The position numbers and the translations under genes are program-made. A stretch of 54,337 nucleotides of DNA, the filler included, from Sphacelaria rigidula (Eukaryota), in assembly GCA_964200075.2 (NCBI GenBank). It is 5 parts of 5 records of this genome, joined end to end, with 100 filler letters (N's around TTAATTAATTAA, not from the genome) between each part and the next. Parts side by side here need not be neighbours in the genome. Positions count along the whole stretch, not along the records: positions 10,889 to 21,676 come from CAXNAA020005911.1; 4 more parts are not named here. The stretch is one strand, 5' to 3'. Positions 1 to 49,034 of this stretch are shown here, piece by piece (position 1 is the stretch's first letter; every line of letters begins with the position of its first letter). The notes beneath the pieces were generated by a model. The model searched no databases. It saw only the letters and a program-made list of their open reading frames with translations, and had not been told where the DNA came from.

Positions 1-292
1 AGTAATTTCCAGACGAATCATTATTTGTCCGACCCTTGAATGTTTTTGATTGAACACGATCGCTCTCATCGTTCTCAGATACTGATACGCCCGTCCGTGC
101 GAAAACAAGTGGTGTTTCACGACCACTAGCGCCTGGCTTTGCGTCAAATCGACAAATAACTAGTGCCGCATGCGTGACGAGCGCGCGCTGGTATTTCCTG
201 CGCCGATAACCTATTTCTTGTCACGCTGAACCTCTAGACAGAAGTGTCAGCGTAAGCCCTCCATGATCCATACCATCGCTAACCTGGGACAG

Positions 293-448
293 ATCGGCTG
301 TGTGGGGGGACCTCGGAGCGGCTTGGCCGTCTTATCCTTCGGCGAGACACGACTTGCTGCATCTCTATAATAGCGATGCTACCCCGTTGCCCACGCTGAG
401 GGTGGAGGTGTGGCGGTCTGCTCTGCGCGTGCTGGACGACTTGCTGGG
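293..448 (+). CDS. Exon: C2 domain part
   Basis: GCTAAC branch point, CAG acceptor, SAVW...LRVEVWRSALRVLDDLLG, GTGGGT donor. Confidence 0.75.
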
Positions 449-3400
449 GTGGGTGTCTCAATTCACGTGTAAGAGAGGCGGGTGGGTCGGGCAGGTCACT
501 GGTGTAAAAACAAGCGGATCGTTGGCCAACATACCTATAGCATGTTTGTGCATGAATATGCTGGTGCTATACTCCTGTGGTTGTCATTGAGTTTCTACAC
601 GCAGCACCGATTAGAAGGAAAAGACGGCGCGACTTTTCTCTATATGCGTCGATGCTAATCGTATAGCGTTCAACCCTAACCCGAACTCACCTCAGGTACG
701 CCTCCATTAACATGGCCCCGCTCTTGGCACGCCCCGGATCAACATCGGAACGATGGCACGTACTGTCCAACCCCAAGGATGACCCCTCGCGGTCCAACCC
801 CGACTTGGCAAGTGGCCCGATCGCTACCACCCAAGGGTCTCTCCCTTCCGCGGGTATCGTCCTTCTTTCGATGGGATTCACGCCGACAGGGACACCGAGT
901 GTCCGCTCCGCATCTCTGTCGGTGCCTCCACCCCCGATTTCGGGAAACGGCGCACGGAACGATCCTGGGGAGTCCAAGTCCTCTGGTGAGTTTTGGGAAT
1001 CGAGCGCAAACAGCGTTTGGTGCGATTTTTGATGGTCGCCATGATTCCATATCACGATACAGTGTAGATTGATGGTGACTAACGTGAACATTCGAGGTAT
1101 CAAGCATCGCAATGTGTGTACACCATAATTATCCTCTGTATATGGCTTGTTCCGAAACGTTACGAGAAACATATATATATATATATATATACATACATTT
1201 GATGCTTGGCTTGCACCTGGCGTACACAATAATGATATGGATTTGTGGTTGCTTCTTCGTTCGATATACTGTGATTTTACGCTGCCCCAGGTGTTGCTGG
1301 GTCGGCTGTTGCGGTAGGCGTCGCCAGCAGTGCTCATTCATCTAGGTTACCTGCAGCCATCGATACGAGTACAAGGGAGGAGGATGTCGGTCCTACCGAT
1401 CAGTCAAGGCAGCAGCTCCAGTCGTCGCCCCCACAAGTGAACGACCATCGGGAGGCAGGACTCGAGGACAGTCGACAGCCGCGACAAAGCGCCAATCCTA
1501 CCGCGCGGGGTGATGGTAATGGTGGACACGACGTGCCGCCCGCCACCCTCGCCCCCGCCGGTGCAACTGGTGCCGGTAGAAATCGTAGAACCAACCAAAG
1601 TATCCTGCGCCCGGACCGACCTGCCAGTGTTAGTGACGAAAAGCAAGACCCTGTCGTGGTGGCCATGGGCGAAGCAGGCGATAAAACCTCTGGGAATGAT
1701 GAACGACGTCGCTTCGACATCGGCGGTCAAAACGGATCTCCCTTGCCTGAAGTGGATCGGGTAGAGGGTGTTTGGGGTGGTGTGGTCGGCGGGGCTGCTG
1801 GGGGTGGGCTGACGGCGGCCGCGGCTGGAGGGGTAGACGTTCGCGGCGATGAAGTTAAAGAAGTTGACGATGACGGTGTTGATGAGGGGGGGGGCAGGGT
1901 GCACCTTTTCCGGGTGAAGAGTTACACGGCGCCGGTGTGGTGCGAGGTGTGCCGGAGGATGCTCTTCGGGGTAAGGGAACCGCGGCGTTCCGTGATTGTC
2001 TGTGCTTTCGTAATCCATCAATTAATGGATCAATCAAGTAGGTAATTCCTGTGTGTTGTGTGTGTCGATGAGATCACAACCGCCTGGGTCGTTTTCCACG
2101 CTGCAGTACCTCGACACTGAACCTCTCCTTTTGTCTTTGTCTTGCCTACTGGCAGGTGCGAAACCAGGGGTTTTGCTGTGAGGCGTGCTCGATGAACGTC
2201 CATGCGCGCTGCCAGTTGCGGGCCAACTTCCTACACCCGTGCCCTGGTCGCGGGAAAGAGGTGAACGGTGGAAGTGACTCTGCGTATCTGGACATACTTA
2301 TCCAGCCCGCTCGTCGTGTAATTTTGCCTCGGGTCGGAGGTTGCACGGTACCATTCATGTGCCGCAAGTCATCTTGGCGGTGTTCGAGTGCTCCTCTCCC
2401 CTATATGAGGCGAGGTCCTCTTTTTGCCGTGGCTAGTGACACATGACTGTATTGAAGAAGACAATGGACGACGCATGACATGGAGAGTGCGGATAAAAAA
2501 CGTGGGGGTTGCGCAGTACTGTAAGCTCATGTACTGTATGCTAAAATCGCTTGTTTTTTTAACTTTTGGTGAAAGCACTAGAATAAGATGAAGATGCCAC
2601 GAACAAGAAAATGAAAGGCGTGTGCCTGGTGCAGCATCGTAAGCTGCTCGTAGTGCATGCTGAAATGGCCTGCAGATAGGAAGGCCCGTGGTCGTTACGA
2701 TGAAGCAAGCGCCTGAAACGTGCGCCATATGTGGTGTTTTCCCGACGGAAATGGGACAGTCGCGCGCGGCTACGTATTTTTGTGCTGGGAATACCATCGT
2801 GTTAACATTGTCTTGCCCTACACCATGCCTAGCACCCTCTTAATTGTAACCAAGTACAGAAGAGGTCTCCATGCTCCCCCTGCGTGCGCTCCATCCCCTT
2901 TCCCCTTTCTGTGCTCCCCCATATGACATGTGACCCATAGCGACGAGAGCAGGGAGGAAACAAAGTCGGTTCATCGAAGAACGTTTCCCGAAGGAGCAGT
3001 AGCCGAGAGCTGGACCAGGCTGTCGGCTTGTTGCAGGTACCAACACACGCACGTTGAATAGTACGCTCACGAGCGAGGGAGAGAAAGAACGCGTTTGTGC
3101 TTGTGTCAGTGTGTTGATGATCGCGCTCGCATTGCTACGTGGCCTGTAGTTCCTGCTGAAAACATCATCTCGCTATGAGCGGGAGGTTCCGCGCTGTGAG
3201 TCGGGGTCTGGAAGATCGAGCGACTCGGCTCTTGCCTCCGATGCAATACGTATATATAAAAATTATGAGTATATATATATATAAAAGGCCCCGGAAGACT
3301 AGATGACACTAGTTCGACGGATCTAAGCTAGGGCATGGCCTTAAGAGATCTCCCACGTAGCTCTAAAACAAGGCAATGTGGTATGAAGGTGTGACTGACA

Positions 3401-10788: not shown

Positions 10789-10888
10789 NNNNNNNNNNNN
10801 NNNNNNNNNNNNNNNNNNNNNNNNNNNNNNNNTTAATTAATTAANNNNNNNNNNNNNNNNNNNNNNNNNNNNNNNNNNNNNNNNNNNN
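10789..10888. other. Artificial contig spacer (N44-TTAATTAATTAA-N44); same at 21677-21776, 32565-32664, 43452-43551
   Basis: Identical 100-nt spacer with six-frame stop linker. Confidence 0.97.
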
Positions 10889-11042
10889 TACATTTACCAA
10901 TACACGTTTGTCTCCCCCCCCCCCCCCCCCCCCCCTTAAGGCAAGCAACAAATGAGTACCCCCCCCCCCCCCCTCCCCCTCCGTGCCGCCAATACACGCA
11001 TCACCAATCCTGGGAGAGGACAGAGAAACTTAAGGCTGACAG

Positions 11043-11237
11043 AAAGGGCGTGCGTCCACCCGACAGAGGTGCTCTCAGTCCTGAACACCCTATCCAGCAC
11101 GCTCATCTTCAACAACGCCAACCAAGAGGAACGAATAGCGTTGGCCAGCCGCTTACGGCATTGGGTAGTCGACGACGGGACGTACCTCATTCGAGAGGGC
11201 GACGGTGATAGTATTCCACCCGCCATCTTCATGATAG
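11043..11237 (+). CDS. Exon: N-half of cNMP domain (5' boundary uncertain)
   Basis: LIFNNANQEERIALASRLRHWVVDDGTYLIREGD…AIFMI; GTGAGG donor. Confidence 0.75.
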
Positions 11238-14200
11238 GTGAGGAAGCACGGATAAGGAGGATCGGACCCTCTCTGCAAATGAATACGGTCAAGGTCGCTA
11301 CACCTGAAGCTGCAAACGATACCATGGTGTGCTAGGAACAAAGCGAAGCAACACGTCGTCTTCGACACGTGCGTCTCGTTTATCATCACCGAATACGGTT
11401 GGAGAATTGTCTCAAACTAGCGGATAGAGAGCACTTGTAGCTTAAATGGAACCTGTTAGCTTAGTCGAGTCATAATCGCATGGTGTTGTTTCTATTCCCA
11501 TCAACAGGTCTCACATTGCGTTTCCGTGAATAGTCAGAACTTTTCAATCCCCTGTTCTTCGCGTCTCTTTCGTAATTTCTCATGTCAAATTCTAATGGGA
11601 GTTCGCACGACCACCCGATTAGAGCTTGTCGTTGTGCTGACCACAATCAACTTTGTCGGTGTCTCTCGTGCTTCGTTCGACTTTTTCAACGTCTGAATCA
11701 CATGTTTGGAGCACATTTTCGGTTTTCGTAACGTCCCCACCGTGTTCCCCCCACGCCTGTAGCATTTACCCCTAAGACTTGACAACACCTATTCCTTGTG
11801 GGAATAAAATGGAGTGTTTGTCAATGACTCTCCGCTACCACCAACCAGCGTCCGGCAAGGCAACGATATCCCTGAATCGGAAACTCGAAAACGGGTCGAT
11901 CCAGGAAGTCGACATCAAAGACATCAGGTACCCAAACTACTTCGGGGAGGGGAGGGTGTTGGCAGACCAGTGCGCTTATGCGAGCGTGCGTGCAAAGCAG
12001 CAGCTGGTGGTGTACTACATCATGCGAGCCGATATTGAGGAGCTTGTGAGGTGAGAACTTGTTCCTTTTTTTTGCACACCTCCCCCCGGGACGAGTCAGT
12101 GGATATCGAGGCATCGACCCCTCTCTTCCCCGGTCAATCTCCCGTGACATGGACATTCAGATTTGTGTGGGAAATGACGGTACTCGGGTGAAATTGTCAT
12201 TTGCTATACTGCGCTGCACGCGGTTCGACCGTATGTATATATGTACATATGTGAGGAAGGCATATCACTAGATTAGTCAGAGACCTACGGGGGAGACTGC
12301 CGTTCTGATGCCGAAGGAAATCCGAGGTTGGCGATGATTTCCTCTTGTATATGTAGGCAAGAAGAAGTCAGACGAGAAGTGATCGCCAGGGGCGACCAGT
12401 ACTTCGGGGGATGTTGGACCGTCCTGATATTAGGCTCTTCCTGACATTACCCCGAGTTGTCTTGTTACGTCGGCATTACAGGGTCCTCGGTAATCTGGTC
12501 CTTCCGGCCGTGTCCTACGTTGTCCCTGCTTGCGCTGGTTCTTCATACCACACCCTGGACAATATGTGGTCAATACTTGCGATACACAATAAACGTACTG
12601 CATAAAGTAAAGGCCTATTGCGCCTGCCGAAAAATAGGCGCAATAGGCCTATACTTTATGCAGTACGTTTATTGTGTATTGCAAGTATTGACCACATATT
12701 GTCCAGGGTGTGCTTCATATATGTATGGCATCAGTCTCTGATATGTCACTGCAACGAGATATCTTCCACACATACACGCGTTTTTGTGTCAATCGACACT
12801 CACCACGTGTGACAAATTTACGGAATGGCCTTGTCCCTTCGTTTTTTTTCGAGTACTCGTACGATGTAAGGGAAATGCGGGCTGTCCGCAGAGAACAGGG
12901 ACGAAATGATGACGCATTGAACGTGCTGTGGAGTACACAAGACAGACGAGATACTCTGCACGGTGTTATATCCTTCCATGATTCCGGCCGTTTTCTTCAT
13001 TTTGTGCCGTGCTGTGTTGGGCTGTGTTGTGTTGGTCTGCGTTGTGTTGGGCTACGTTGCCTTGCCTTGCTGAGAACGCCGGGCAGGTGGGCAAGGAGGC
13101 TCGGGTTCAAGTTGGGCGATGGTCCGATGCCCCGTTCAGTACTGTCCCGTTTATGCCGAGGGTGGTGTGTAAATGAAGAACAGCAGGGTCTTCCCTAGCG
13201 CGAATTTCGCAAGGTCCTCCGACCAGATGTGTTCATTTGGTTTCGTGACTTTCCTTCGTGGCAATTATGGGAGATTTTGACGTGTACCGACTACGATGGC
13301 ATCATAGGGGTACGATGCAACAGTAGCTGGGAACCGCCACCCTTCCTGGGTTGGAAGCTACGCAGCTACTCGCATATCGTAAGTTGGCCATTGAAGTGCA
13401 TCGCGCATGGGAATTCTCGGCGCCTCTATTTCGTGGTACAGGATTGTTGTGTGCCGGAACCTATGCAAGGCGAGAGATGAGCAGCGTATTTGCCCTTGAA
13501 ATCCGTCATGGCGGCCTGGCAGCTTCATATCACCCGTGACAACTCACCTACATCTCTCCAAACGAGCTACTTACTGTGTATGTTCCGTTTATATTTTCAA
13601 TTCGGTTTTGAGTTATTTTCGCCCTTATCAGCTCGAAGTGCTCGCTCACGTCGGAATCGTTCCCGTGTATGCACACCGTTCCTCGGTATTCCTTTTCGTT
13701 TCACAGCCCCAAAACACGCGCCCTAATGCTGCGGGACATGGAGATACGAATGTTCCAGAAGAGTAACGTGGACGACTTGTTCGGTGTTATCCGAGACAGT
13801 CCGTCGGGGATGGAGTGTCTCACACGCTTCGCTAGGGAGCAGCGGATGGACGGTGATGTAGTATTTTTCAACGATGTTGAGGGTAAGCGGATCACTATCA
13901 GAAATTGAAGTGTGGAATAAAGATTGCGACAGTGGTAACGTGGGGGGAGGGGGAGGGGGAGGAGTACAATACAGGGCTCTTGTACTGCACTGGCATGCTC
14001 GTGTTTGTATACCGTGAACATTTCGCTGCGTGGCTCCATTATGACCACGCTAGCACATTCACCAAACGCTCCCTTCCGCGTGGGAGGAGCACAACTGTTT
14101 CTAGCGGTATGAGAGTGCGCGACGCTCGACAACAACATTCAGCGTTACCCAACACCCTAGATACTCCACAATTGCTCTCGGTTGAGAGTCATTTTGCGCG

Positions 14201-15793
14201 CACCACTGCTCCGTCTCTCGCCTTTTTGCTGAAAAACAATTGCCCACGTGACGGGGGAAAAAAGAGTACAAGCGGACACCGCATGACCCCGAGGAGCGCA
14301 AAGCCCGTGCTCAGCGCATTTTCGACGACTACATATCACCGAGCAGCGGAGGGGCGATGATGATTTACACCTCCGAAGCTCAGCGCAAGGCGATAGCGGC
14401 GGGGATGAAGCACATTTGGGGGAAAAGCAAAAACAAACGGAAAAGCGACGAGAGTTCTATCCATCGTCGACAGATATCGGGGATTTTTTCGTGGCGGCAT
14501 GGAGGGGAAACGGGCGACTGCGAGACTGCGGCAGGCAGGAGTAGTGGCAACGCCAAAACTCAACCACGTCGATGCGGGGGGGTGAGCTCAGATGGAGACG
14601 ATGGAGAAGAGAAAAGACGTTCGGATTCTCAACAACATCCGGAACGGGGCGGGGGCGCTGTGCGGAAGGTTGAAGAGGACGACAACGACGACGAAGATGA
14701 ACGGGGGCAGCAGAGCGTAAGTGGGCGCCGAAATCCCCCCGATTTCGCAACGAATGATGGTGGCGTACATGGCGTCCCGGAAAATGACTGTGATGGTGAT
14801 CGTGGCGGTGTTGATGGTAGTGACAAGAGCGCACAAAGAGAAGAACAGGATCCGGACGGTATAGAGTATGAACGCACTTCACGACTTGATACCAGAGAGA
14901 GCATCGAATCGTTGCACGGTTCGCAAGTGTCGGCCACCTGGAACGAGGCCTCGGCGCCCGAGCATCGCCCATACTTGGACTCGAGAGCATCCGACGGCGT
15001 GGGTATGGATGGAGAGAACCCGAAAGAGGCGGCTGATCTCGAGCGAGCGTTGTCTCTGTTCGACGAAGTATTGGATCAGAACGCGATCCCTACCATACGC
15101 CAGCATAGTGAGTTTGACAAAAAAAACAAATTCAAATCGTGTATTTTCTCGAAAAGCTGCGTTGCCCGCGACAGCGCAACTCGGGTTGCCGAGGTTTTCC
15201 GTCGATGTCTGTCAGCAGTATGCACAAGACAAGCGGTTGGTTGCAGGAAGCCAGAACCAACCATTTGCTCTCCGCTTGTGCGGAATTTACACGTAGCCTT
15301 CGAAGTTCGTGATGTGTGAGCGACCATTAGAAAACGTTCGACGACCGTCCGTGTGCCCGCCCACCCGCTCCTGCCGCCCCCCTCAACCTGTTCTACGTTT
15401 CCTGCCAATACACATGCGCCATGAATATGCGGACAAACAGTCATCCCAAAGTTCCTCCAAAGCACCTACTACGAGCTATTCCTGGCGAAACGCTTTCCTC
15501 TCCTCAGCGACACCGGCAAAGACGTCAACAATGCTGACAGCAGGATATCTGTCTCGGAACTTCTTGACGAGAATACCGTACGGCAGCGATTCTTTACCAC
15601 TGACAACGCGCTAGGTGAACGTTCCGTGTCGGACGTTAACATGGTGCGGGCAAGGCATCATTCGGAAAGCGCGGCGACGGCAGTGGCGGCGGCGGTTACG
15701 GCCGCTGCCGCTACCGCAGGCGAAGGGGGGGAGATCGGCGAAGGTGGTCGGCTTAGTGTGGGTGTTGGTGGCATCATCAATAGCCAGGTGTGA
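11043..15793 (+). CDS. Partial multi-exon gene: cyclic-nucleotide-binding (cNMP) domain plus RGS domain protein
   Basis: Exons ~11043-11237, 11849-12050, 13707-13882, 14265-15107, 15441-15793, all phase-compatible. cNMP motifs LIREGD, FMIASG, YFGEG. RGS motifs GMECLTRFAREQ..DVVFFNDVEEYK, AQRIFDDYISP, SLFDEVL, IPKFLQSTYY. Confidence 0.82.
11849..12050 (+). CDS. Exon: C-half of cNMP domain
   Basis: SGKATI…YPNYFGEGRVLADQCAYASVRAK…YYIMRADIEEL. Confidence 0.85.
13707..13882 (+). CDS. Exon: RGS domain N-terminal helices
   Basis: LFGVIRDSPSGMECLTRFAREQRMDGDVVFFNDVE; GTAAGC donor. Confidence 0.8.
14265..15107 (+). CDS. Exon: RGS middle helices plus ~200-aa acidic/disordered insertion
   Basis: EYKRTPHDPEERKARAQRIFDDYISPSS…; later ALSLFDEVLDQNAIPTIRQH; GTGAGT donor. 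Confidence 0.8.
15441..15793 (+). CDS. Probable last exon: RGS C-terminal helix and tail
   Basis: IIPKFLQSTYYELF resembles the RGS 'YPRFLKS..Y' motif; frame open to TGA at 15791. Confidence 0.7.
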
Positions 15794-18700
15794 TGTCAAG
15801 GGTGCCCGTCATTTAAAAATCAAGACAGCTAAACCCCTAACGTTGACATTTGGAGTTTGGGGGGGGGGGGGGGGGGGAAGGGGGGCTGGATAGGGGTGGT
15901 GTCCAGCGAATGTCGTGCCCCCCCCCCAAAATATGCGACGTCAATGGTCGTATGACTACGGCACGGAAGACTATGAGGCCCAACCCCTCCTTCAGTTTGT
16001 GGAGGTACTCTCCAAGATTTGTTTGATAGCGCTCGCCTGCAACTGCGTACTTGGGGGTGTTATAGTATGGTATGCGAATATACTAGACTTGATCACGGTG
16101 TGAAAAACTACGTGATCGTGCCGTCATATGATGAACATTTCCGTGTCTTGGCGTGGTATCGATGATTGCCGTGATTTCGCTCTGACTAGAATATTATACG
16201 AAGTATTTCCTTTCAGTTGTCCTTTGATGCCTGCAAGCTATTGTACTGTACATGATCTTAGTTTCGTGTATGTTTAGTGTGAAGATTTACTCGGTTGAGC
16301 TCAACGCGATGTTGCAATAGTCACTCATTTTTGTACTTCAGTGTAATACATTTTTGTACTTCAGGGTGTCTAAACGTTGTAATCTTCCCCCTGGACGGGG
16401 GACGGGGTGAAGGTATCCTGATTTCCGATCCATGGATACCCTCGGTGATGTGGCTGCATCTCGTGAGTCATATCTGTGTCTTGTGTCTGTTTTCAAGTAA
16501 AACAGCAACACCGTTCAGTCACTCCATGAAACCGTAGAACACACGCTTCCCAGGCGACTTGAAAAACGTGCTCTATACGTACGGATTCACAGAGAACATG
16601 GCTAACCAAAGATGTGATGGTTGATGCTTGCCTGTTTAGTCATGCCCTCGGCTTTCGTGTTGTATGAGGACATTGTTATCCGGGAATTGTGTCGAATGCA
16701 AGTGACCAAATGATCAAGACAGTGTTCAGCGATACAACTCATAGCGTGTTGAATACACTTGCAACAGGCAGTACAGGTCGACGGATATTATTTCGTTATG
16801 TTCAGTACATGAATATGGATCACTGCGCTTAAGAAATTGGCGGTACTGTGTGCGACACAATCCGCACGCATGTATCATACAGTGCGCACCATCGTTCCCC
16901 TATGTCGTACCTGTGTCACTTTTATTCCCAAAAAATGTCAGTTCAGTAGGCATCTTGACCGTAGGAAAGTTGTCACAACCAAGTGCCTTATATTTTCGGG
17001 CGGGTGGTGAATATTTTGCCCCAGGTACACGACTTTTTGCCACTGATGACGGGAGAACAAATCCAAAGAAAACTAATCGTTGTGAACAAACGTCATGGTC
17101 TTCACACAGAAAACAATATCTACAGGAACCTAAAAGGTAGAGTCTAGTGCTCACTGCAAAAATGATGACAGACTGATCGTCGCTACCGCCGTTGTACACG
17201 CAATTGCTGCATGCATGTTGCATCTCGCGTGCGTCATGCATCGGTCGAAACCAAAACCCCCCCCCCCCCCCCCCCCCCACACCAGGACCACCCCACCCCC
17301 CCCAACGCCACCACCGCCCGCGAANNNNNNNNNNCGCCCGGGGAACCCCCAATTCGGGCGTGCCTGGGACACCTCAAGGGGGTCAGGCACGGGCCGAAAC
17401 CAGCCCCCCCCCCCCCCCCAAAAAAAAACAGAACGCGCGCCCTCAAAATCGGCAATCCTGGTCTGGGAAATATGGCAAACCCTCGGGAAGCGCGGTGGAC
17501 TACGGCATGGGGTTGAACTCCGGGCTTGCGTCACCAATATCCGAGCATCCAATAAAAAGCGGCGAAGTGAAGACGGGGAAGCAGCTGAGAAGAGCAGAGA
17601 GCGGCTACGTGACACTGGACCAAGATCGATGCGACGAGATGCTGGTGGTAGTTGCTTTTCGACCAACGGGCATTGGGTGGAAAATATGGAGGGCACGGCT
17701 AGCTATGTTGCAGGCCGCGAGGGACGCCTGCGGGCTGATGTAGCTGGAAGCACATGATTTTTATCCATAATTATTTTACCGTTGTTGTATTTAGCTCGTG
17801 CGTACTTTGATCGGGTGGGAGTCGTCAGCAGCAGGTAAACGGGAACGTTCTGGTCGCCGACGCCGTGAGACCTACGCATGAATACGTCTCAAGCAGCATG
17901 TTGACGAATCTTCTCTATACCGCCGATGTTGCACAGCTCCATTTTTCCACAGCTTGTGCCTTCGACTTTTCGCCGCATGATTTCGCTCAAAAATATGGAG
18001 GACTAGTTGGGTAGGGGGGAGAAGTGGGAGGGCGTGGCCGGGCTAACGTACGAATTACGGTATGCTTGGGATTCGATGATTTCCGCTTTTTCACTGACTA
18101 ATGACAAATACATGTACTTGGCAAAGGGGGTCTGCGGTTCTGTTTCATCCGGGGTGTATTCTGCAGCAGAAACAAATAGTTGGCGCCCCCGCTTGATTGT
18201 GCTACTTTCCCAGCGTAATACAATAGACTAGTGGTCCTGTGCATCCCATCCAGACTTGGCATATATGACATTTTCTACGTGTGGAGTGATTGATGTCGCT
18301 GCAGAAATAATTACTACTTCGGTTGTTTCGGTGAACGTGACTCTTCTCTTCTCGCCCTAACCCCGTCGCATGCCCACCATACCTCTCCAGTATCGCAGCG
18401 TCCCACCCCTCGTAAACGTAGACACAGAGCACTACCCCCCGCAATGATACTGCACTAAATGTGGCCGCCGCTCGAACACCAAGAGAGCTATATTTCGAAG
18501 GCTGCATAATCCCGCGCGAATTGTATGTCAGCATAATATATAGAAGCATCGTCATTGATAACAGCAGAGCACATATTTACCCGCTCCATGTGTCCGACTT
18601 CCTGGCGGTCATTGCTCATCATGCTAGAGAAACCCGGCGAGTCAATGCTCAAGTGCTCTCCCTTTGCTCGACGAAGAAAGTCGCGTCATAAAAGGGGAGC

Positions 18701-19204
18701 TGGTCTCACGCATCTACACATAGATATGGCTTGTGCCGTCGCGTCGAGCGCGGCGCCCGAAATCGTTCGACTCGGTCGTGCATTCCAAAAGAGCCACGCG
18801 TGACCTTCCGCCCTCTCCTTGACGCGGGCGCTCGAACTCCACCTGCACCAATGCAGTCGGGTGGGCGGTGCAAACAGAGGCAGCAGGCCGCGTCGCAGGC
18901 TATTATTGGCAAGAGTATTATTCCAGCGTTGAATGTAGGATGGATACTTTTTCCTGGCGAAAACCATCAGGAATGATGAACCCGCCTGAAACTGTATGCA
19001 CGTCGATCACTTTGCCCTAGAGGCAGCACAAGCTACACCTGACTGGATGCCATCTCTTTGATGGCGCTACAGTATTGCATTGTCACTCTGTCCCGAAGAC
19101 AACCAGCAGTGAATGAAAAAAAAAAACTTTCGGTGTGCTATACTCTCGACGAACTTCCGGGATAATGAACTCTTTCCACATCCAATACAAACCACTCTCG
19201 TCAC

Positions 19205-21638
19205 CTCTGCCAAAAGCCCGTCCGTGAATGCCTGATGGACAACCTCTCGAGCCTCGCTTTCGATCATCCGAGGCCGTTGTCGCCGCAGCCACAGAGCCGG
19301 TAATCTCATCCTTCTCGACGTCAACGCTCGTAGCAACACTCTTAAACCCGAGGCCCTAACGCTGTTACCCCCCAGCCTTAGACATCGTAGCACCCCTGGA
19401 GGCAAAATTTGGATCGCATTCGCTGCGCACTGGATGTCGCGATCGGTCAAACCACAATCCTCCACCGACAAAGACGAGAGCTCTGGCATGCGCTGGAGGT
19501 GCCTAAAAAAACAGTCCCATGCTTCGTGCGCGGCGGCAGCAACCAAACCCGCGGCGGTTGCCGGTACCGGCTCCGCGTAACTCCCCCCCGCGGGTTCCGT
19601 TTCGGTTAATAAATACGCGGCTAGTGACAGCGATCTAGTACTTCTGGTGCCGTGGTACCGTTGTCGGCCAAGGCAACAATGACTGAGGGATAGGCTGCGC
19701 AGGCGCGAGCAGTCTGGTGAGGAGAGGGATTTCGCTAGGGCCATTATTCCTCGCGGTCCCACCGTACAGCCTTGCCCTCCGATGGCCAGAGTGGTGAGCG
19801 TTGATAAACAGTGCCGATTCCTTCGCATGGCGGAGCTGAGAACGGAGAGTCCCAGATCTCCTAGAGGCGAACACCCGTGCACAATGATGTGAGTTATATT
19901 TGTTCCATGTCTTCCCGTAGCTATCTTCGCTGTTTCAGGCATTGCCACTGACAACTCATCAGTGCGCGACAAAAGAGCGCCGTCGCATGGGGCAACTGGA
20001 AGCACTTTTGTATCGAATTTGTTCTGGCTTTGTTCCTGCGCGCACGCCGCTATGTTTCCCTCCGTGGTGTTCTGTTCTTTTCGCTCTTCTGCTGATACCA
20101 CTGCTGACGTACCTCTACACTCCGAAGGGAGGCCAAGTCTCGAAAATAGGCGGCATGCGGATGCGGCGTCAAACGAAGGACTCGAAACGACCAATCTCGA
20201 GCATCGGAGTGCTTGCGCGAGAGAGGATTCGGTGGCGACTGCCGGCGGCACCCAACGCATCTGCACTCCCAACTTCCTTGGGACCAGGGTCGCGGACGAT
20301 TGAGGTGAAGGCAATGGCGGTAGTTTCTGCCGTTGCCTGCTGTCTTCTGTCTTGCAAATCTCCTCTGTGTTGCCAGGCTCCCAGCGTTCCGCCGGGCAAG
20401 ATTGCCACACATGACGACCCGGTAAGCTTGCACCAGACGCCCCTCTCGTGGAACGGCAGCATGCTGTGGCGGACAGCTCAAATACGTCTCCGTTGGTGGC
20501 GGTATCGCTTCGAGTACTCCCATCAGAATGGTCACCCTGATTTTTCACGCCGCTGGAGCTGTCGCGGCCTGGCGATGGCCGTGTCCGTAACACGTCGCCA
20601 TAGGAACCAGTATCGTCTATGCATTTAGCGTATGATCTCGTTTCCCAGAGAAAGGCCGCTCGGTTGGCCGATTCAAACCCTTCAGTGTACCCCTTGTCCA
20701 TCGGATTGTCTCTCCTGGTCACCACTCCTACCGCGCAGGAGGGGCCTTCCATTGATCTCATACCGTCATCGTCGCCCGCCAGCGCCCAGTTGTGATGGCC
20801 CTTCTTGGCGTTGCAATTTACGATCTGCGGGAAGTGCTGCCGATGTAGCCGGTCTAGTATTGCCGTCATCTGCCATCTCCCCTTACACCCCCTGAATAAG
20901 GCCTGCACGGTGGTAATAGCTTTCCGACGCCGTGAAATCCGGCGCCGGGCGAGGAGAATACGGCAGGCGCTTTGGACCGGGAGCGCCGAACTTTGGATCG
21001 CATTCAACCGCTGCTCTGATGCCTCTTTGGCGGTTGGCCCCAAGCCTCCAACATTGGAGATGGTCAACATCCGACTGTAGCGAGAATGTCGACCAGACGC
21101 AAAAGCGAGCACCGACTCGAAAAAGTGTAGTTAGTAATTAGTAGAGCTCACAGGATTAGCATTATTTTCGCACGCAAATATCCAGCAACGCGTCAGGATC
21201 GGTCGATGGGAGAAAGCAAATGAAGATCAATCGTTTACGGGAATACGCCGACGAGTGCACGGCGTGAAAAAATTTCCCTTGACCTTTCCCCTCTACTTCT
21301 GGCATACACATATTTGCGCTACCATACAGTCAATTCGCTGGCGGTGTATTATTCATCGGCTGCAGCGCTTCGCGTTTCACTTGTCAAAGTGCAAACTGAA
21401 ATCCTTGGTAACATCAGCGCATAGAAACTCCGAAAAGGGAAGAGTACCTAAGCTCCATGGCACCCGCAACGGCAAAGCGCAGCGTCATCCAACGGTTACG
21501 CTCCTTCCAGTGCCTCATGAACCGCTGAATTCGCAAAGCTGCGATTTGTGACTTGACGGCCTCTTCAAGCATGCGGGTGACTCTATGAGCTTTCCACCCT
21601 CTCTGCACTCGCGCAGCGGCCAAGCTCTCGAAGATGTA
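19205..21638 (-). CDS. Partial gene: IQ-motif (calmodulin-binding) plus RI-like leucine-rich-repeat protein
   Basis: Exons 21638-21448 and 21074-19205 (phase-2 junction). IQ-like motifs AARVQRGWK, ALRIQRFMR, ITTVQALFRG. LRRs LRSLSLSHCCLG, LSSLSVEDCGLTD, LRCLRLGGNSV. A further 3' exon may be 18985-18686. Confidence 0.8.
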
Positions 21639-21949
21639 CTACAACACGAAAATGGTGACGCAGCATGGAGGGGGGGNNNNNNNNNNNNNNNNNNNNNNNN
21701 NNNNNNNNNNNNNNNNNNNNTTAATTAATTAANNNNNNNNNNNNNNNNNNNNNNNNNNNNNNNNNNNNNNNNNNNNCGTCTCGAAAGGGATGCGTGGTCA
21801 ATGGTCAAATGACTAAGGCAAGCAACAAATGAGTACGCCCCCCCCCCCCGGTATCGATCAAAGGCACTTGCGGACGGTACTTCCCTCGAGTTTTTGTCGC
21901 ACACTGGCTAGCTCCTCAAACCTCAATTTACTGATCAACCTCATTTTAT

Positions 21950-31311: not shown

Positions 31312-32814
31312 CTGTTCGAGATGAATCCCACATGACACATGAAAATACGTCATTTTCAAACCACTTTGATACTCGGAGATCTTGGGATCTTTCCTGACCT
31401 GAAGGAGCATATGCTTGTCAAAATCAAGCGACAAACGCTATTTGCAATGGTACTTTGGCACACATCACATGGATTCGCTGGGATATGATTACTTGGCGAC
31501 TAAGGAATTCAATGAAAACAAAAAACAAATAAATGTGGTCTAGGCAAAAAAAGCACACGGTAAGTACCGCCAGTCCCGCAATATATATATATATATATGT
31601 GTGTGTGTACATCATAATGATTGTGATCCTACCACAAAAAAATAGCACCTGACCCGTGCAACATTGCAACTTGTGTATACGTACATCCCATGTAGACATA
31701 TCCACGACAGGGCAGAACAGAAGGGAACACATTTTATTTGATTGATTGTTGCATAGCACTGCTAGAACTAATCCTCGAGGTTGCTGTTCTTGCCTCAGTT
31801 CGCACATCCTTCCTACAGCGCCTACAGCGCCTGCTGCATTGTTTGGAATCCTTGCATTTCTTCACACGTCAGACAAGCTCAGCAGCTACTTGAAATAATT
31901 AATCGAACACAACTCTCATAATTATTGGTCCAAGAACACTATGAACGTGACGGCGGGGTCAGAGAAGCCAAGGCGCTACATTTTCGCTTCTCTGCGTGCT
32001 CGGCGTCCAGCGCTGTGGGGAGCAAGTATGGCAAAAGGGGCCAAATAAGCTGGCTAATGATCCGGATGAGCACACTTTTTCATCAGAATTAATACTCAGA
32101 CACAGTGTAGCTCCTAAGCAGTCTGACGTGTGGAACTTTTCATACATGGTGTGTCGCGGAAAATTTTGCAGCGATGAGACACTATATCTTCAGTATGATT
32201 GTCCACCGAAAAAACGCGGAGAGCTGAAAATTGAAGTAGATCCGTCATGCACGTGCATTCCGTTCACGTACAGTAAAAAGAGCCCGACGACGACCAGGCG
32301 GTAGTACTGTACACTGTACCGAGTGAAGACCATCAGGGATATAGCCACCGTCACGCTTTTTGTGGCGACCCAAATTTGATCTGATGCACATGCTGATTTT
32401 GTACTGCTACCGAATTATGCAGGTGATATTTTTTTGCAAATTCTTGAAAAACCGTGACATTTCAGACTCTGCAATACACTTTTTTTCAGCATCTCACACA
32501 CATCGAGTCATCTTACGATAGGGGGGGGCGGGTATTTGGTTGCACGAAAAAAGAGGCTCATAAGNNNNNNNNNNNNNNNNNNNNNNNNNNNNNNNNNNNN
32601 NNNNNNNNTTAATTAATTAANNNNNNNNNNNNNNNNNNNNNNNNNNNNNNNNNNNNNNNNNNNNCTTTCCGTCTTTGTGGGGCTGCGCCGTCACTGGTCT
32701 AATTCCCCTGCCCTCCATGCTCATGAGTACCCCCCCCCCCCGTCCTCCCGTCCGTCCCTGCACCCCGATGTCTCTATGCGGAATCAACCGATGCGTGGCA
32801 AAACTGTACCGCAC

Positions 32815-43451: not shown

Positions 43452-43707
43452 NNNNNNNNNNNNNNNNNNNNNNNNNNNNNNNNNNNNNNNNNNNNTTAAT
43501 TAATTAANNNNNNNNNNNNNNNNNNNNNNNNNNNNNNNNNNNNNNNNNNNNATAATTCACCACGAAGATCGCATATTATTGGCGCTAGATTCCGCCGATT
43601 CCTCACTGGAGGGCCTCTGATTGGTTGAATTTCACATTTCACTACAAAATGTTATTCCCATGTATGGGCGTTGTGCCGTATAGAATGTGTTTTTATTGCA
43701 CACTGAG

Positions 43708-47790: not shown

Positions 47791-49034
47791 ATGGCTACCG
47801 ACTCAAGAGGTACGTCCACCGTGACACCCGTGTTCATGCAGGAAGAGTTGCGACCTTCCCAACACGGGGACAGGTACTCAGAGAGTGCATCTCGCACTTT
47901 TTACACGAGGTATTTGGAATAAAAGAAGCGTGTGGAGCACGCTAATGCAGGGGGTGCCGTGCGGCATCAGGTGGTGACAATGGCTCAACCAGTGCCAACT
48001 CATCTACAGAGAGTGTTCGCTCGTTCGGAATATAATGAGAACACTATCACCCCGCCGCAGTTGGTTGCGGCGATCAAAACGCTGGGCATGCGGCGGGCGC
48101 CGAGGTAGATCTAACCCAAGCGTCCTCGGCCTTGGCGAAAGCTGTCGCCATGGATTCTCGGGGGGAAACGGTCTTGGAGCGGGTGGAGCCCATCTTGGCC
48201 AATTTGGAGAAGAGCTTCACGAAAAATCCGAACGTGGGACTAGTATAACGTTCCCCCGATAGTGAGTTCATTCCCGGCCTGGCAGCAGTAATCATCAAGG
48301 CTTTGATGGAGGGGTTGGCACCAGAAGAATTGAAGCAAGCCGTGCTCATCAAGCTGCAGCACCAAACAGACTTGAAGGCCGACGCTTACCTGGTGATGAG
48401 CACCGTCGTGGCCAAGGCCAAGGAATGGCGAAAAATAGAGGTATTGGGCCAGTCGTCCACCTCTTCGACGAAATCTTTGCGCAACCATGGCTCGAAATCA
48501 GCCGGTTGCGCCGCGAGTATTACTTGCCACCGCTGTGGCCAGGTCGGCCATTACGCGCGCGATTGCCCAACGATTTCTCGTGGAGAGTCTGGGCAGTCAA
48601 GTACCGCGCGCCATCAGCATCGTCAGCACAAGGGCCAAATACGAGGTAATCGTGGTGGCGGCGGCGGATCCTCCGGCGATGGAGGGTCGCAGGCGAGCCC
48701 TCAGCAGCAGCCGCAGCAGCAGCAGAATCAGCAGCAGCAGGGGCAGTGGCGTCAGCATGGGCCTGGCTCTGGATCCGGCGCCGCCGTAGGTGCTGCTGCT
48801 CCGCAGCGGGCGGTGCAGGTGGATCCGACTTCTGCAGAGCCGAACACTGCGCCGGCGGCGACACCGGCAGCAGCGCCAGGCGCGACGCCTGTTGACGCGC
48901 TGGTCGGAGGGTCGCCAAATTCTTGGGTTGCTAGCTGGGGGTCATACCCGCCGGTGGTGCCGTTTGAACCTGCCGGGGCGTCTTCGCCTGCGCAGCACGC
49001 AGCCGTGGCGTCAAGTGGGATTAGCGGGATATAG
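47791..49034 (+). pseudogene. gag: gag remnant with CCHC zinc knuckle
   Basis: CHRCGQVGHYARDC in ORF 48303-49034; upstream part interrupted by stops/frameshifts. Confidence 0.8.

Follow-up and report, generated by a model that had tools for sequence, protein, structure and literature searches.

A Sphacelaria rigidula gene that joins a cyclic nucleotide-binding fold to an RGS fold: a brown-alga member of an uncharacterized stramenopile family

[quoted passage not shown] The question comes from the original prediction, made at positions 11043..15793 of the window (the whole analyzed stretch of 54,337 nucleotides (nt), composed of five contig pieces of about 10.79 kb each from this alga), that five phase-compatible exons encode a cyclic nucleoside monophosphate (cNMP)-binding domain immediately followed by an RGS domain. 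The locus, on the second of the five pieces (10889..21676), is a genuine spliced gene of S. rigidula whose 5' end is lost past the left edge of the contig. Its product belongs to a family with a characteristic layout, in which a disordered N-terminus is followed by one cyclic nucleotide-binding (CNB) fold, then by a long C (lid) helix and an RGS fold with all nine helices, and finally by a CaaX tail; in the Sphacelaria protein, the RGS fold is interrupted by an acidic loop of about 150 amino acids (aa). With a probability of roughly 0.6, we read this protein as a prenylated, membrane-tethered RGS-fold regulator or adaptor with a conserved, non-canonical sensor, rather than a classical cNMP-switched GTPase accelerator. 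If the CNB sensor is truly coupled to the RGS output, the family would provide a one-protein shortcut between cyclic nucleotide or small-ligand signaling and heterotrimeric G proteins in stramenopiles, a group to which brown seaweeds and plant-pathogenic oomycetes belong and in which G protein signaling is poorly understood; the brown-alga branch has altered exactly those residues on which the textbook mechanism depends.

Domains and predicted structure

Searched against protein databases, the longest exon yields a single match, P0001 (610 aa, 'unnamed protein product, partial [Sphacelaria rigidula]'), with 85% identity over 100% of the query; this is the annotated product of the contig in question, which measures 10788 nt, as does the second piece, so that this piece represents a small contig in full. 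A Pfam search with P0001 identifies RGS (PF00615) with 36.0 bits against the gathering cut-off of 23.9, and cNMP_binding (PF00027, residues 53-141) with 30.1 bits against 27.5, and no other family at E values up to 0.1. The RGS match covers positions 6-82 of the 117 in the profile and is partial because of the insert. The single-exon open reading frames (ORFs) give only sub-threshold matches, in two of the six, with 22.6 bits for cNMP (exon 2) and 12.5 bits for RGS. The original prediction held that the two domains escape detection at the ORF level because they are split among exons, and this is indeed the case, the spliced protein being above both cut-offs.

The AlphaFold2 model of P0001, built on a 70-row alignment, has predicted local distance difference test (pLDDT) values above 90 at about residues 10-255 and 410-460 and below 50 at residues 267-394. 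From the N-terminus, it consists of a beta-barrel with helices (16-140), a long helix (143-161), further helices (166-252), a disordered loop and the last group of helices (410-456). The barrel has eight strands and flanking helices, like the solved CNB domains, and only four residues separate the C (lid) helix 143-161 from the first RGS helix, 166-171. When the whole model is compared to the PDB using Foldseek, all the best 49 matches are cNMP-domain entries with E values of about 1e-8; the RGS matches, none of which is among these 49, come from an exhaustive structural comparison (VIA). The CNB part matches PKG (3shr_A, Z 16.2, root mean square deviation (rmsd) 2.0, 121 aligned residues, model residues 15..141). 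The RGS part matches SNX13 (7wf6_A, Z 14.0, rmsd 2.1, 127 aligned, 165..459), RGS4 from a complex with G-alpha (1agr_H, Z 13.9, rmsd 1.9, 116/116 aligned, 164..450), RGS3 (2oj4, Z 13.6, rmsd 2.9, 127 aligned, 155..457) and SNX25 (7sr2, Z 13.3, rmsd 1.9, 117 aligned, 158..452). Helical bundles can reach Z scores of about 13 by chance; the RGS matches obtained here span the whole domain and agree with Pfam. These matches are tied, with differences in Z within 1, so that no RGS subfamily can be assigned. In the model, the RGS fold is complete, with the acidic loop inserted between its helices. Altogether, the architecture originally proposed, a cNMP domain directly followed by an RGS domain in one stramenopile transcript, is upheld by the Pfam scores, by structure prediction for the protein alone, and by the spliced contigs described below.

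Gene structure and transcripts

Transcript evidence comes from four of the eight public runs that contain the stretch, with the junctions read from the alignment positions of assembled contig pieces, among the pieces listed; of the eight, X1-X4 are typed as RNA by guess, and X8 represents the same data as X1 because their records are equal in length and depth. Record 4 of X1, a single contig of 2183 nt, aligns to 11847-12048, 14264-15107, 15441-15787 and 17435-18044. The 177 letters between its first two pieces correspond, allowing for boundary ambiguity, to exon 3 (176 nt), and the depths of 4.74 at 13529-13792 and 6.28 at 13793-14056 are close to the expectation for a contig of depth 14.2 over 13707-13882. 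Record 9 of X2 (1905 nt) aligns to 14264-15107, 15441-15787 and 17435-17835. The exon 6 contigs start at 17435, with three record letters before this position unplaced. The deep run X5 is continuous through the introns (record 17: 12739-15962). The spliced contigs show that a processed transcript exists.

The corrected gene model lies entirely on the plus strand. The first visible exon, 11024..11237, lies between the acceptor ggacag and the donor gtgagg, has a phase 1 end and encodes the N-terminal helices and the first strands of the cNMP-binding fold (...LIREGDGD...IFMI); record 1 of X1 and record 6 of X2 align to 11023-11237. Exon 2 (11849..12050) encodes the remainder of the beta-barrel, the phosphate-binding cassette YFGEGRVLADQCAYASVRAK (P0001 105-124) and the B helix, and exon 3 (13707..13882) the long C helix, i.e., the lid with Arg156, followed by RGS helices 1-4 with the motif MDGD. 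Exon 4 (14265..15107) covers RGS helices 4-6 (with the motif IYTS, P0001 234-237), the acidic disordered insert and RGS helix 7 (LFDEVL), whereas RGS helices 8-9 (IIPKFLQSTYYELFL) and a low-complexity tail are encoded in exon 5 (15441..15787, ending with CCAG before the donor gtgtga). The coding part of exon 6 (17432..17743, acceptor acag before aac) adds a 103-aa tail with the terminus ...ARDACGLM and the stop codon at 17741-17743. Transcription of exon 6 extends to at least 18044, and with a further contig (18036-18299), the 3' untranslated region reaches at least about 18299. Upstream, the transcript continues for at least 499 nt beyond 11023, off the contig (record 1 of X1 is 714 nt long, and its letters 500-714 lie on 11023-11237); the Ectocarpus ortholog has about 130 low-complexity residues ahead of the domain. 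All five introns within the window are of the GT..AG type and phase-compatible. The junction codons yield residues that agree with the orthologs, namely Ala in MIASGK, Ser in ELVSP, Ile in QHIIP and Glu in VEEY, the last being Glu in Scytosiphon and Ala in Ectocarpus and Ascophyllum. Thus, the five exons that were originally proposed are real, with correct splice sites and phases, but their boundaries and number change: a start at 11043 is ruled out, the transcript contig aligning from 11023 and the exon starting at 11024; 15793 is the stop of the ORF, the donor being at 15787; and a sixth exon follows.

The public gene model is wrong twice, in that it includes a false intron and leaves out a conserved C-terminus with a prenylation box. 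The intron annotated in P0001 at 14858-14986 (129 nt) is retained in both spliced contigs, and the same segment is in frame in P0008 and the related P0009. P0001 ends at 17599, 48 codons short of the CaaX terminus; the database fragment P0046 has the same ending, with 81% identity over exon 6 and 42 of the last 43 residues identical. With the start of exon 6 moved by three bases, the partial protein supported by the contigs comprises 697 aa.

A wrong merger of a neighboring cNMP gene with an RGS gene, or a chance pattern of ORFs, would be compatible with the sub-threshold scores of the lone exons and with the lack of a listed piece across the 12050/13707 join. Such an artefact is highly improbable, given that a single 2183-nt contig holds exon 2 and exons 4-6 with a gap of exon 3 length exactly between them, that at least five other genera and a cluster of 336 proteins share the domain order, and that a single BLASTP alignment covers both domains (see below). 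The junctions are supported to different extents: the spliced contigs join exons 4-6 directly, the connection from 12050 to 13707 is supported by record arithmetic and depth rather than by a listed piece, and 11237/11849 is unbridged by any contig among the pieces listed, one contig having its end at 11237 and another at 11847, at the two splice sites, and the codon formed across this junction gives the conserved Ala of MIASGK.

Intron 1 (11238-11848) has unspliced coverage of about half the spliced level (about 6 versus 12-14 in X1 and 3.9 versus 8.7 in X2), and the other introns are nearly without coverage. This signal, for which contig depth is a poor measure, could reflect pre-mRNA or else intron retention, which would yield a protein truncated within the cNMP fold.

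Family, contact residues and proposed mechanism

A word-based search identifies two-domain orthologs in Ectocarpus sp. 4 (700 aa, apparently full length), Scytosiphon and Ascophyllum, and these brown-alga proteins match P0001 with E values of 1e-118 to 1e-122; in a relative from Tribonema, Pfam detects the cNMP part alone. An exhaustive HMMER search yields 118 matches at E values up to 0.001, eight of these at up to 1e-30, with many single-exon fragments among them. Among the longer matches, P0011 (JGI), P0060 and P0064 contain both Pfam domains, and P0012 (Chrysoparadoxa) and P0091 align over both regions with a Pfam score for cNMP alone. Thus, the ochrophyte genera with cNMP+RGS relatives number at least five besides Sphacelaria, namely Ectocarpus, Scytosiphon, Ascophyllum, Tribonema and Chrysoparadoxa. 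In a Pfam search of 46 further representative matches, RGS is found in none, cNMP alone in 39 and no domain in 7. P0064 is a compact protein of 352 aa that lacks the insert and scores 66.4 bits for RGS and 64.3 for cNMP; a homolog search started from it gives three matches, two with cNMP alone, and no additional two-domain relative. P0001 and P0064 form one BLASTP alignment over both domains (21-228 versus 39-251, E 3e-17), and both match one ESM Atlas cluster, which comprises 336 proteins, mostly from Oomycota, and is automatically named 'Cyclic nucleotide-binding/Regulator of G protein signaling domain-containing', in which cNMP is present in 100% and RGS in 96% of the members; P0001 has a feature score of 0.94 to this cluster, with 173 of 256 features in common. 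The oomycete members are known from the cluster annotation, and the residue comparisons below cover the non-oomycete sequences. Because P0001 and P0064 are collinear over both domains and fall into one mostly oomycete cluster, the pairing is, judging by sequence, old within stramenopiles.

The accessible part of the survey by de Mendoza et al. 2014 (PMC3971589) includes cNMP binding among the partner domains of RGS in divergent taxa, and the available text of the brown-alga genome preprint (10.1101/2024.02.19.579948) has no occurrence of 'RGS'. The original prediction knew of no characterized protein with this pairing. As far as function is concerned, this holds, since full-text literature searches found no functional study of any cNMP-RGS protein; the architecture as such, however, is already catalogued, in P0001 itself, in the other ochrophyte genera, in the ESM Atlas cluster and in the accessible part of PMC3971589. 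What is new here is the Sphacelaria member of a catalogued but uncharacterized family, and not the pairing itself.

The CNB part is the best-conserved region of the protein in comparison with Ectocarpus (102/132 identical residues, against 50/89 and 30/52 in the two RGS parts, 27/129 in the insert and 19/85 in the tail). In the HMMER alignments, the cassette Arg of PKG II and Plasmodium PKG is opposite Ala117 of P0001 (YFGEGRVLADQC-A-YASVRA). On the basis of textbook work on PKA, we take this position to be the one that binds the cyclic phosphate, and the Gly-Glu pair of the cassette (here G107 and E108, invariant in 10/10 aligned members) presumably holds the ribose 2'-OH. In a survey of 22 distinct family sequences, counted after removal of the cluster twins P0125-P0130 and an unrelated match in P0072, the cassette Arg is found once, in P0064 (TPRTAS). 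The preceding residue is Arg in nine sequences, Pro in five, Lys in three, Cys in three (Sphacelaria included), and Ala and Val in one each. Residues 285-320 of P0026, a Tribonema minus paralog, contain the start of the cassette (YFGEGML) three times in tandem, which points to a small tandem duplication or else to an error in the gene model.

The RGS part shows a similar departure from the canonical pattern. The contacts with G-alpha are assumed here, on the basis of the RGS4 and RGS9 complexes, to be formed by the SEEN loop, the Asn in the loop between helices 5 and 6, and the Asp and Arg of helices 7-8. P0001 has MDGD (189-192) where RGS12, RGS18 and CG5036 have SEEN, and I-Y-T-S, shared with the brown-alga orthologs, where RGS9 and P0064 have INID and INVS, respectively, in a register set by eye. 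His438 and Lys442 of P0001 occupy the positions of the Asp and Arg of P0064 and RGS9, within the brown-alga motif 'RQHIIPKF' or 'RQNIVPKF' of helices 7-8. Sequence alignment thus reveals no GAP (GTPase-activating protein)-competent set of contact residues in P0001. P0064, for which the alignment with RGS9 extends across the entire domain (E 2.9e-10), retains the I-N-V-S Asn as well as the Asp and Arg in 'RQDMIARF'.

These residues bear on the most straightforward mechanism for such a protein, in which binding of cAMP or cGMP would move the lid helix and switch the GTPase acceleration by the RGS domain, creating a feedback from the second messenger to the G protein. Both folds are complete and adjacent, the Gly-Glu pair is invariant, and P0064 keeps the Arg (PRTAS) along with the RGS Asn and Asp/Arg, so that the ancestral family may well work in this manner; moreover, a G-alpha subunit is reported for Ectocarpus in the accessible part of PMC3971589. 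In the Sphacelaria protein, however, Ala occupies the Arg position and Cys the neighboring one, the contacts SEEN, Asn and Asp/Arg are changed to MDGD, Tyr (or Met) and His/Lys, and the Arg is missing from 21 of the 22 distinct family sequences. Because both sets of residues are replaced, the classical switch is unlikely in brown algae, where a derived regulator or adaptor fits better; for canonical members such as P0064, the alignments make the classical mechanism plausible. Of the ligand-gated RGS module in stramenopile signaling that was originally proposed, the two folds and the lineage stand, and its reading as a ligand-gated GAP is weakened by the replacement of the phosphate-binding Arg and the G-alpha contacts.

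The same replacements could also indicate an RGS-homology scaffold with no relation to heterotrimeric G proteins, comparable to sorting nexins, Axin or AKAP10, in which the CNB-like part would be a protein-interaction module. The top structural match of the RGS part is SNX13 and, according to the accessible part of PMC6099885, membrane binding of fungal RGS-LOV proteins is inhibited internally by their RGS domain. Nevertheless, SNX13 is tied with RGS4, the family includes relatives with canonical contact residues, and a prenyl anchor would bring the protein to the location of G-alpha, all of which renders a scaffold of this kind rather improbable.

The case for such an anchor comes from the C-terminus. 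CaaX-type endings are found in the window ORF and in P0046 (CGLM in both), in P0006 from Tribonema and P0011 (CSIM in both), P0065 (CTIM), P0060 (CAIT) and P0064 (CIIS). Because the ending is shared by the window ORF and six relatives, we infer from the sequences that the protein is prenylated and membrane-bound. The membrane is the site of action of G-alpha subunits.

The preferred reading, a membrane-tethered regulator or adaptor with a non-canonical sensor, can be cast as the following mechanism. The protein would be prenylated and sit at the membrane, where the RGS-fold domain would engage a G-alpha subunit or another partner. The CNB-like domain might control this engagement through the lid helix that runs into RGS helix 1, by a logic similar to that of EPAC or PKG. 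In the brown-alga and xanthophyte branch, the Arg that contacts the cyclic phosphate and the canonical G-alpha contacts would have been exchanged for other clade-conserved residues, so that the sensor domain might recognize a different small ligand, show weak, non-canonical binding of cNMP, or serve as a fixed regulatory module.

Several observations weigh against this reading. Apart from the two 5' junctions that lack a listed piece, a DNA retrocopy is formally possible as the source of the spliced contigs. The predicted template modeling (pTM) scores of 0.59 for P0001 and 0.62 for P0064 (pLDDT 79.8) leave the orientation of the domains not fixed; a complex prediction of the CNB part (8-162) with the RGS part (163-462) of P0001, run without alignments, yields no call, its scores of 0.14 and 0.03 lying under the mark of 0.34. 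As annotated, P0001-P0004, of which P0002-P0004 are brown-alga models, have no CaaX box at their ends. In the pocket, Ectocarpales have an Arg one position ahead of the canonical one (SRAYASV), the motif GEGR (P0001 107-110, window 11944-11955) is conserved in the family at the place of GE-L/I-A in canonical cassettes, and the lid helix has Arg156 (window 13747-13749), invariant in 10/10. GEGR and Arg156 might replace the lost phosphate-binding Arg, and with the Arg of Ectocarpales, they make a shifted phosphate contact, and hence genuine cNMP binding, possible; strong conservation across the CNB part is equally in keeping with a real ligand site. MAFFT misaligned the loop with the RGS Asn, and a gapless count places Met instead of Tyr at this position, neither Asn nor Ser. 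Finally, the roles of the residues are taken from textbook knowledge, and the readings of binding and activity are sequence-based.

A bolder version of the proposed mechanism is that the entire CNB-RGS-CaaX family comprises small-ligand-gated membrane RGS proteins, the pocket of which, with the Arg lost and GEGR and the lid Arg156 fixed, has been re-tuned in brown algae and xanthophytes to a ligand other than cAMP or cGMP, in the manner of trypanosome PKA, making these proteins lineage-specific sensors that control G protein or related signaling. We consider this speculative and, on balance, unlikely; if true, a second messenger would feed back directly on G-alpha through an arm that is uncharacterized in any organism and might operate, e.g., in zoid behavior.

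Surrounding sequence and comparison with known systems

The five pieces of the window are separated by 100-base linkers of the form N44-TTAATTAATTAA-N44 (10789-10888, 21677-21776, 32565-32664 and 43452-43551). Because the window is glued from five contigs, features that cross a linker are artefactual, and genes are truncated at the edges of the pieces. Outside the coding part of the gene, intron 2 contains a 77-nt inverted repeat (97% complementary, 10-nt loop, core 12549-12712), and the depth in the X5 run rises to about 146,000 in 12209-13000 versus about 60 around; the repeat looks like a very high-copy element resembling a miniature inverted-repeat transposable element (MITE). The window also includes 15 poly-C or poly-G tracts of 10-22 nt (e.g., 10914-10973, 15859-15877, 17257-17278 and 17404-17419) that sit near contig ends and within introns and are a source of many false joints in the DNA contigs. 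Converging on the 3' end of the gene, a minus-strand open frame of 687 aa (19067-21130) that appears leucine-rich-repeat-like by eye is probably a separate gene; the only Pfam match is a sub-threshold IQ motif (17.7 bits). Among 28 other long ORFs of the window, Pfam detects two matches, both unrelated to the CNB-RGS gene. The plus-strand ORF 48249-49034, located where the GC content of the window is highest (0.61), contains a CCHC zinc knuckle (32.6 bits) and may be a gag-like gene of a retroelement.

The closest counterparts of the Sphacelaria protein are the members of the mostly oomycete cluster and the ochrophyte orthologs, which have the same Pfam domains in the same order, are collinear with it and in several cases end with a CaaX box. 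Compared to the compact P0064, the brown-alga branch has the long acidic insert in the RGS fold and is devoid of the cassette Arg and the RGS Asn.

Among systems with other sensors, helmchrome, an RGS+LOV protein of stramenopile flagella that is named in the available text of the preprint 10.1101/2024.02.19.579948, and the fungal RGS-LOV proteins (BcLOV4) likewise combine a sensor of a small signal with RGS in one chain, and helmchrome comes from the same lineage. In the fungal case, membrane recruitment is viewed, in the accessible part of PMC6099885, as the path to G-alpha. The order and the anchoring differ: in these proteins, a flavin-dependent LOV domain is C-terminal to RGS, whereas in Sphacelaria, the CNB domain is N-terminal to RGS and the chain ends with a CaaX anchor.

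AKAP10 (D-AKAP2) and the PKA regulatory subunits bring RGS-homology and CNB domains together in one complex, and one RGS-like domain of AKAP10 is split by an insert. There, the link is non-covalent, via an amphipathic helix, and the CNB domains are canonical binders of cAMP; in Sphacelaria, both domains belong to one polypeptide.

For the CNB pocket, a parallel is provided by the cAMP-independent PKA regulatory subunits of trypanosomes, which bind nucleosides in place of cAMP. Their structures (PDB 6ftf, 6flo and 6h4g) present a CNB cassette without the Arg, as observed here; 6ftf_B is the second-best structural match of the model (Z 16.1), and the title of 6h4g refers to a triple mutant containing T318R. 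By analogy, 6ftf shows that CNB pockets without the Arg can be put to another use. The likeness is limited to the CNB fold, the trypanosome proteins being kinase regulators that lack RGS.

With respect to the proposed coupling, there is an analogy with EPAC (RapGEF3/4) and PDZ-GEF (RapGEF2/6), in which a CNB domain controls a GTPase regulator. In these proteins, as in the Sphacelaria protein, the lid helix of the CNB domain leads into the domain that regulates the GTPase, and the regulatory domain of EPAC2 (1o7f_A) is among the structural matches (Z 13.5). The CNB-like domain of PDZ-GEF is not known to bind cAMP, which parallels the missing Arg in Sphacelaria. The outputs differ, with a CDC25 exchange domain for Rap in the former and an RGS fold in the latter, and the DEP, REM and CDC25-type domains of the RapGEF architecture are not found in P0001, in which Pfam recognizes two families only.

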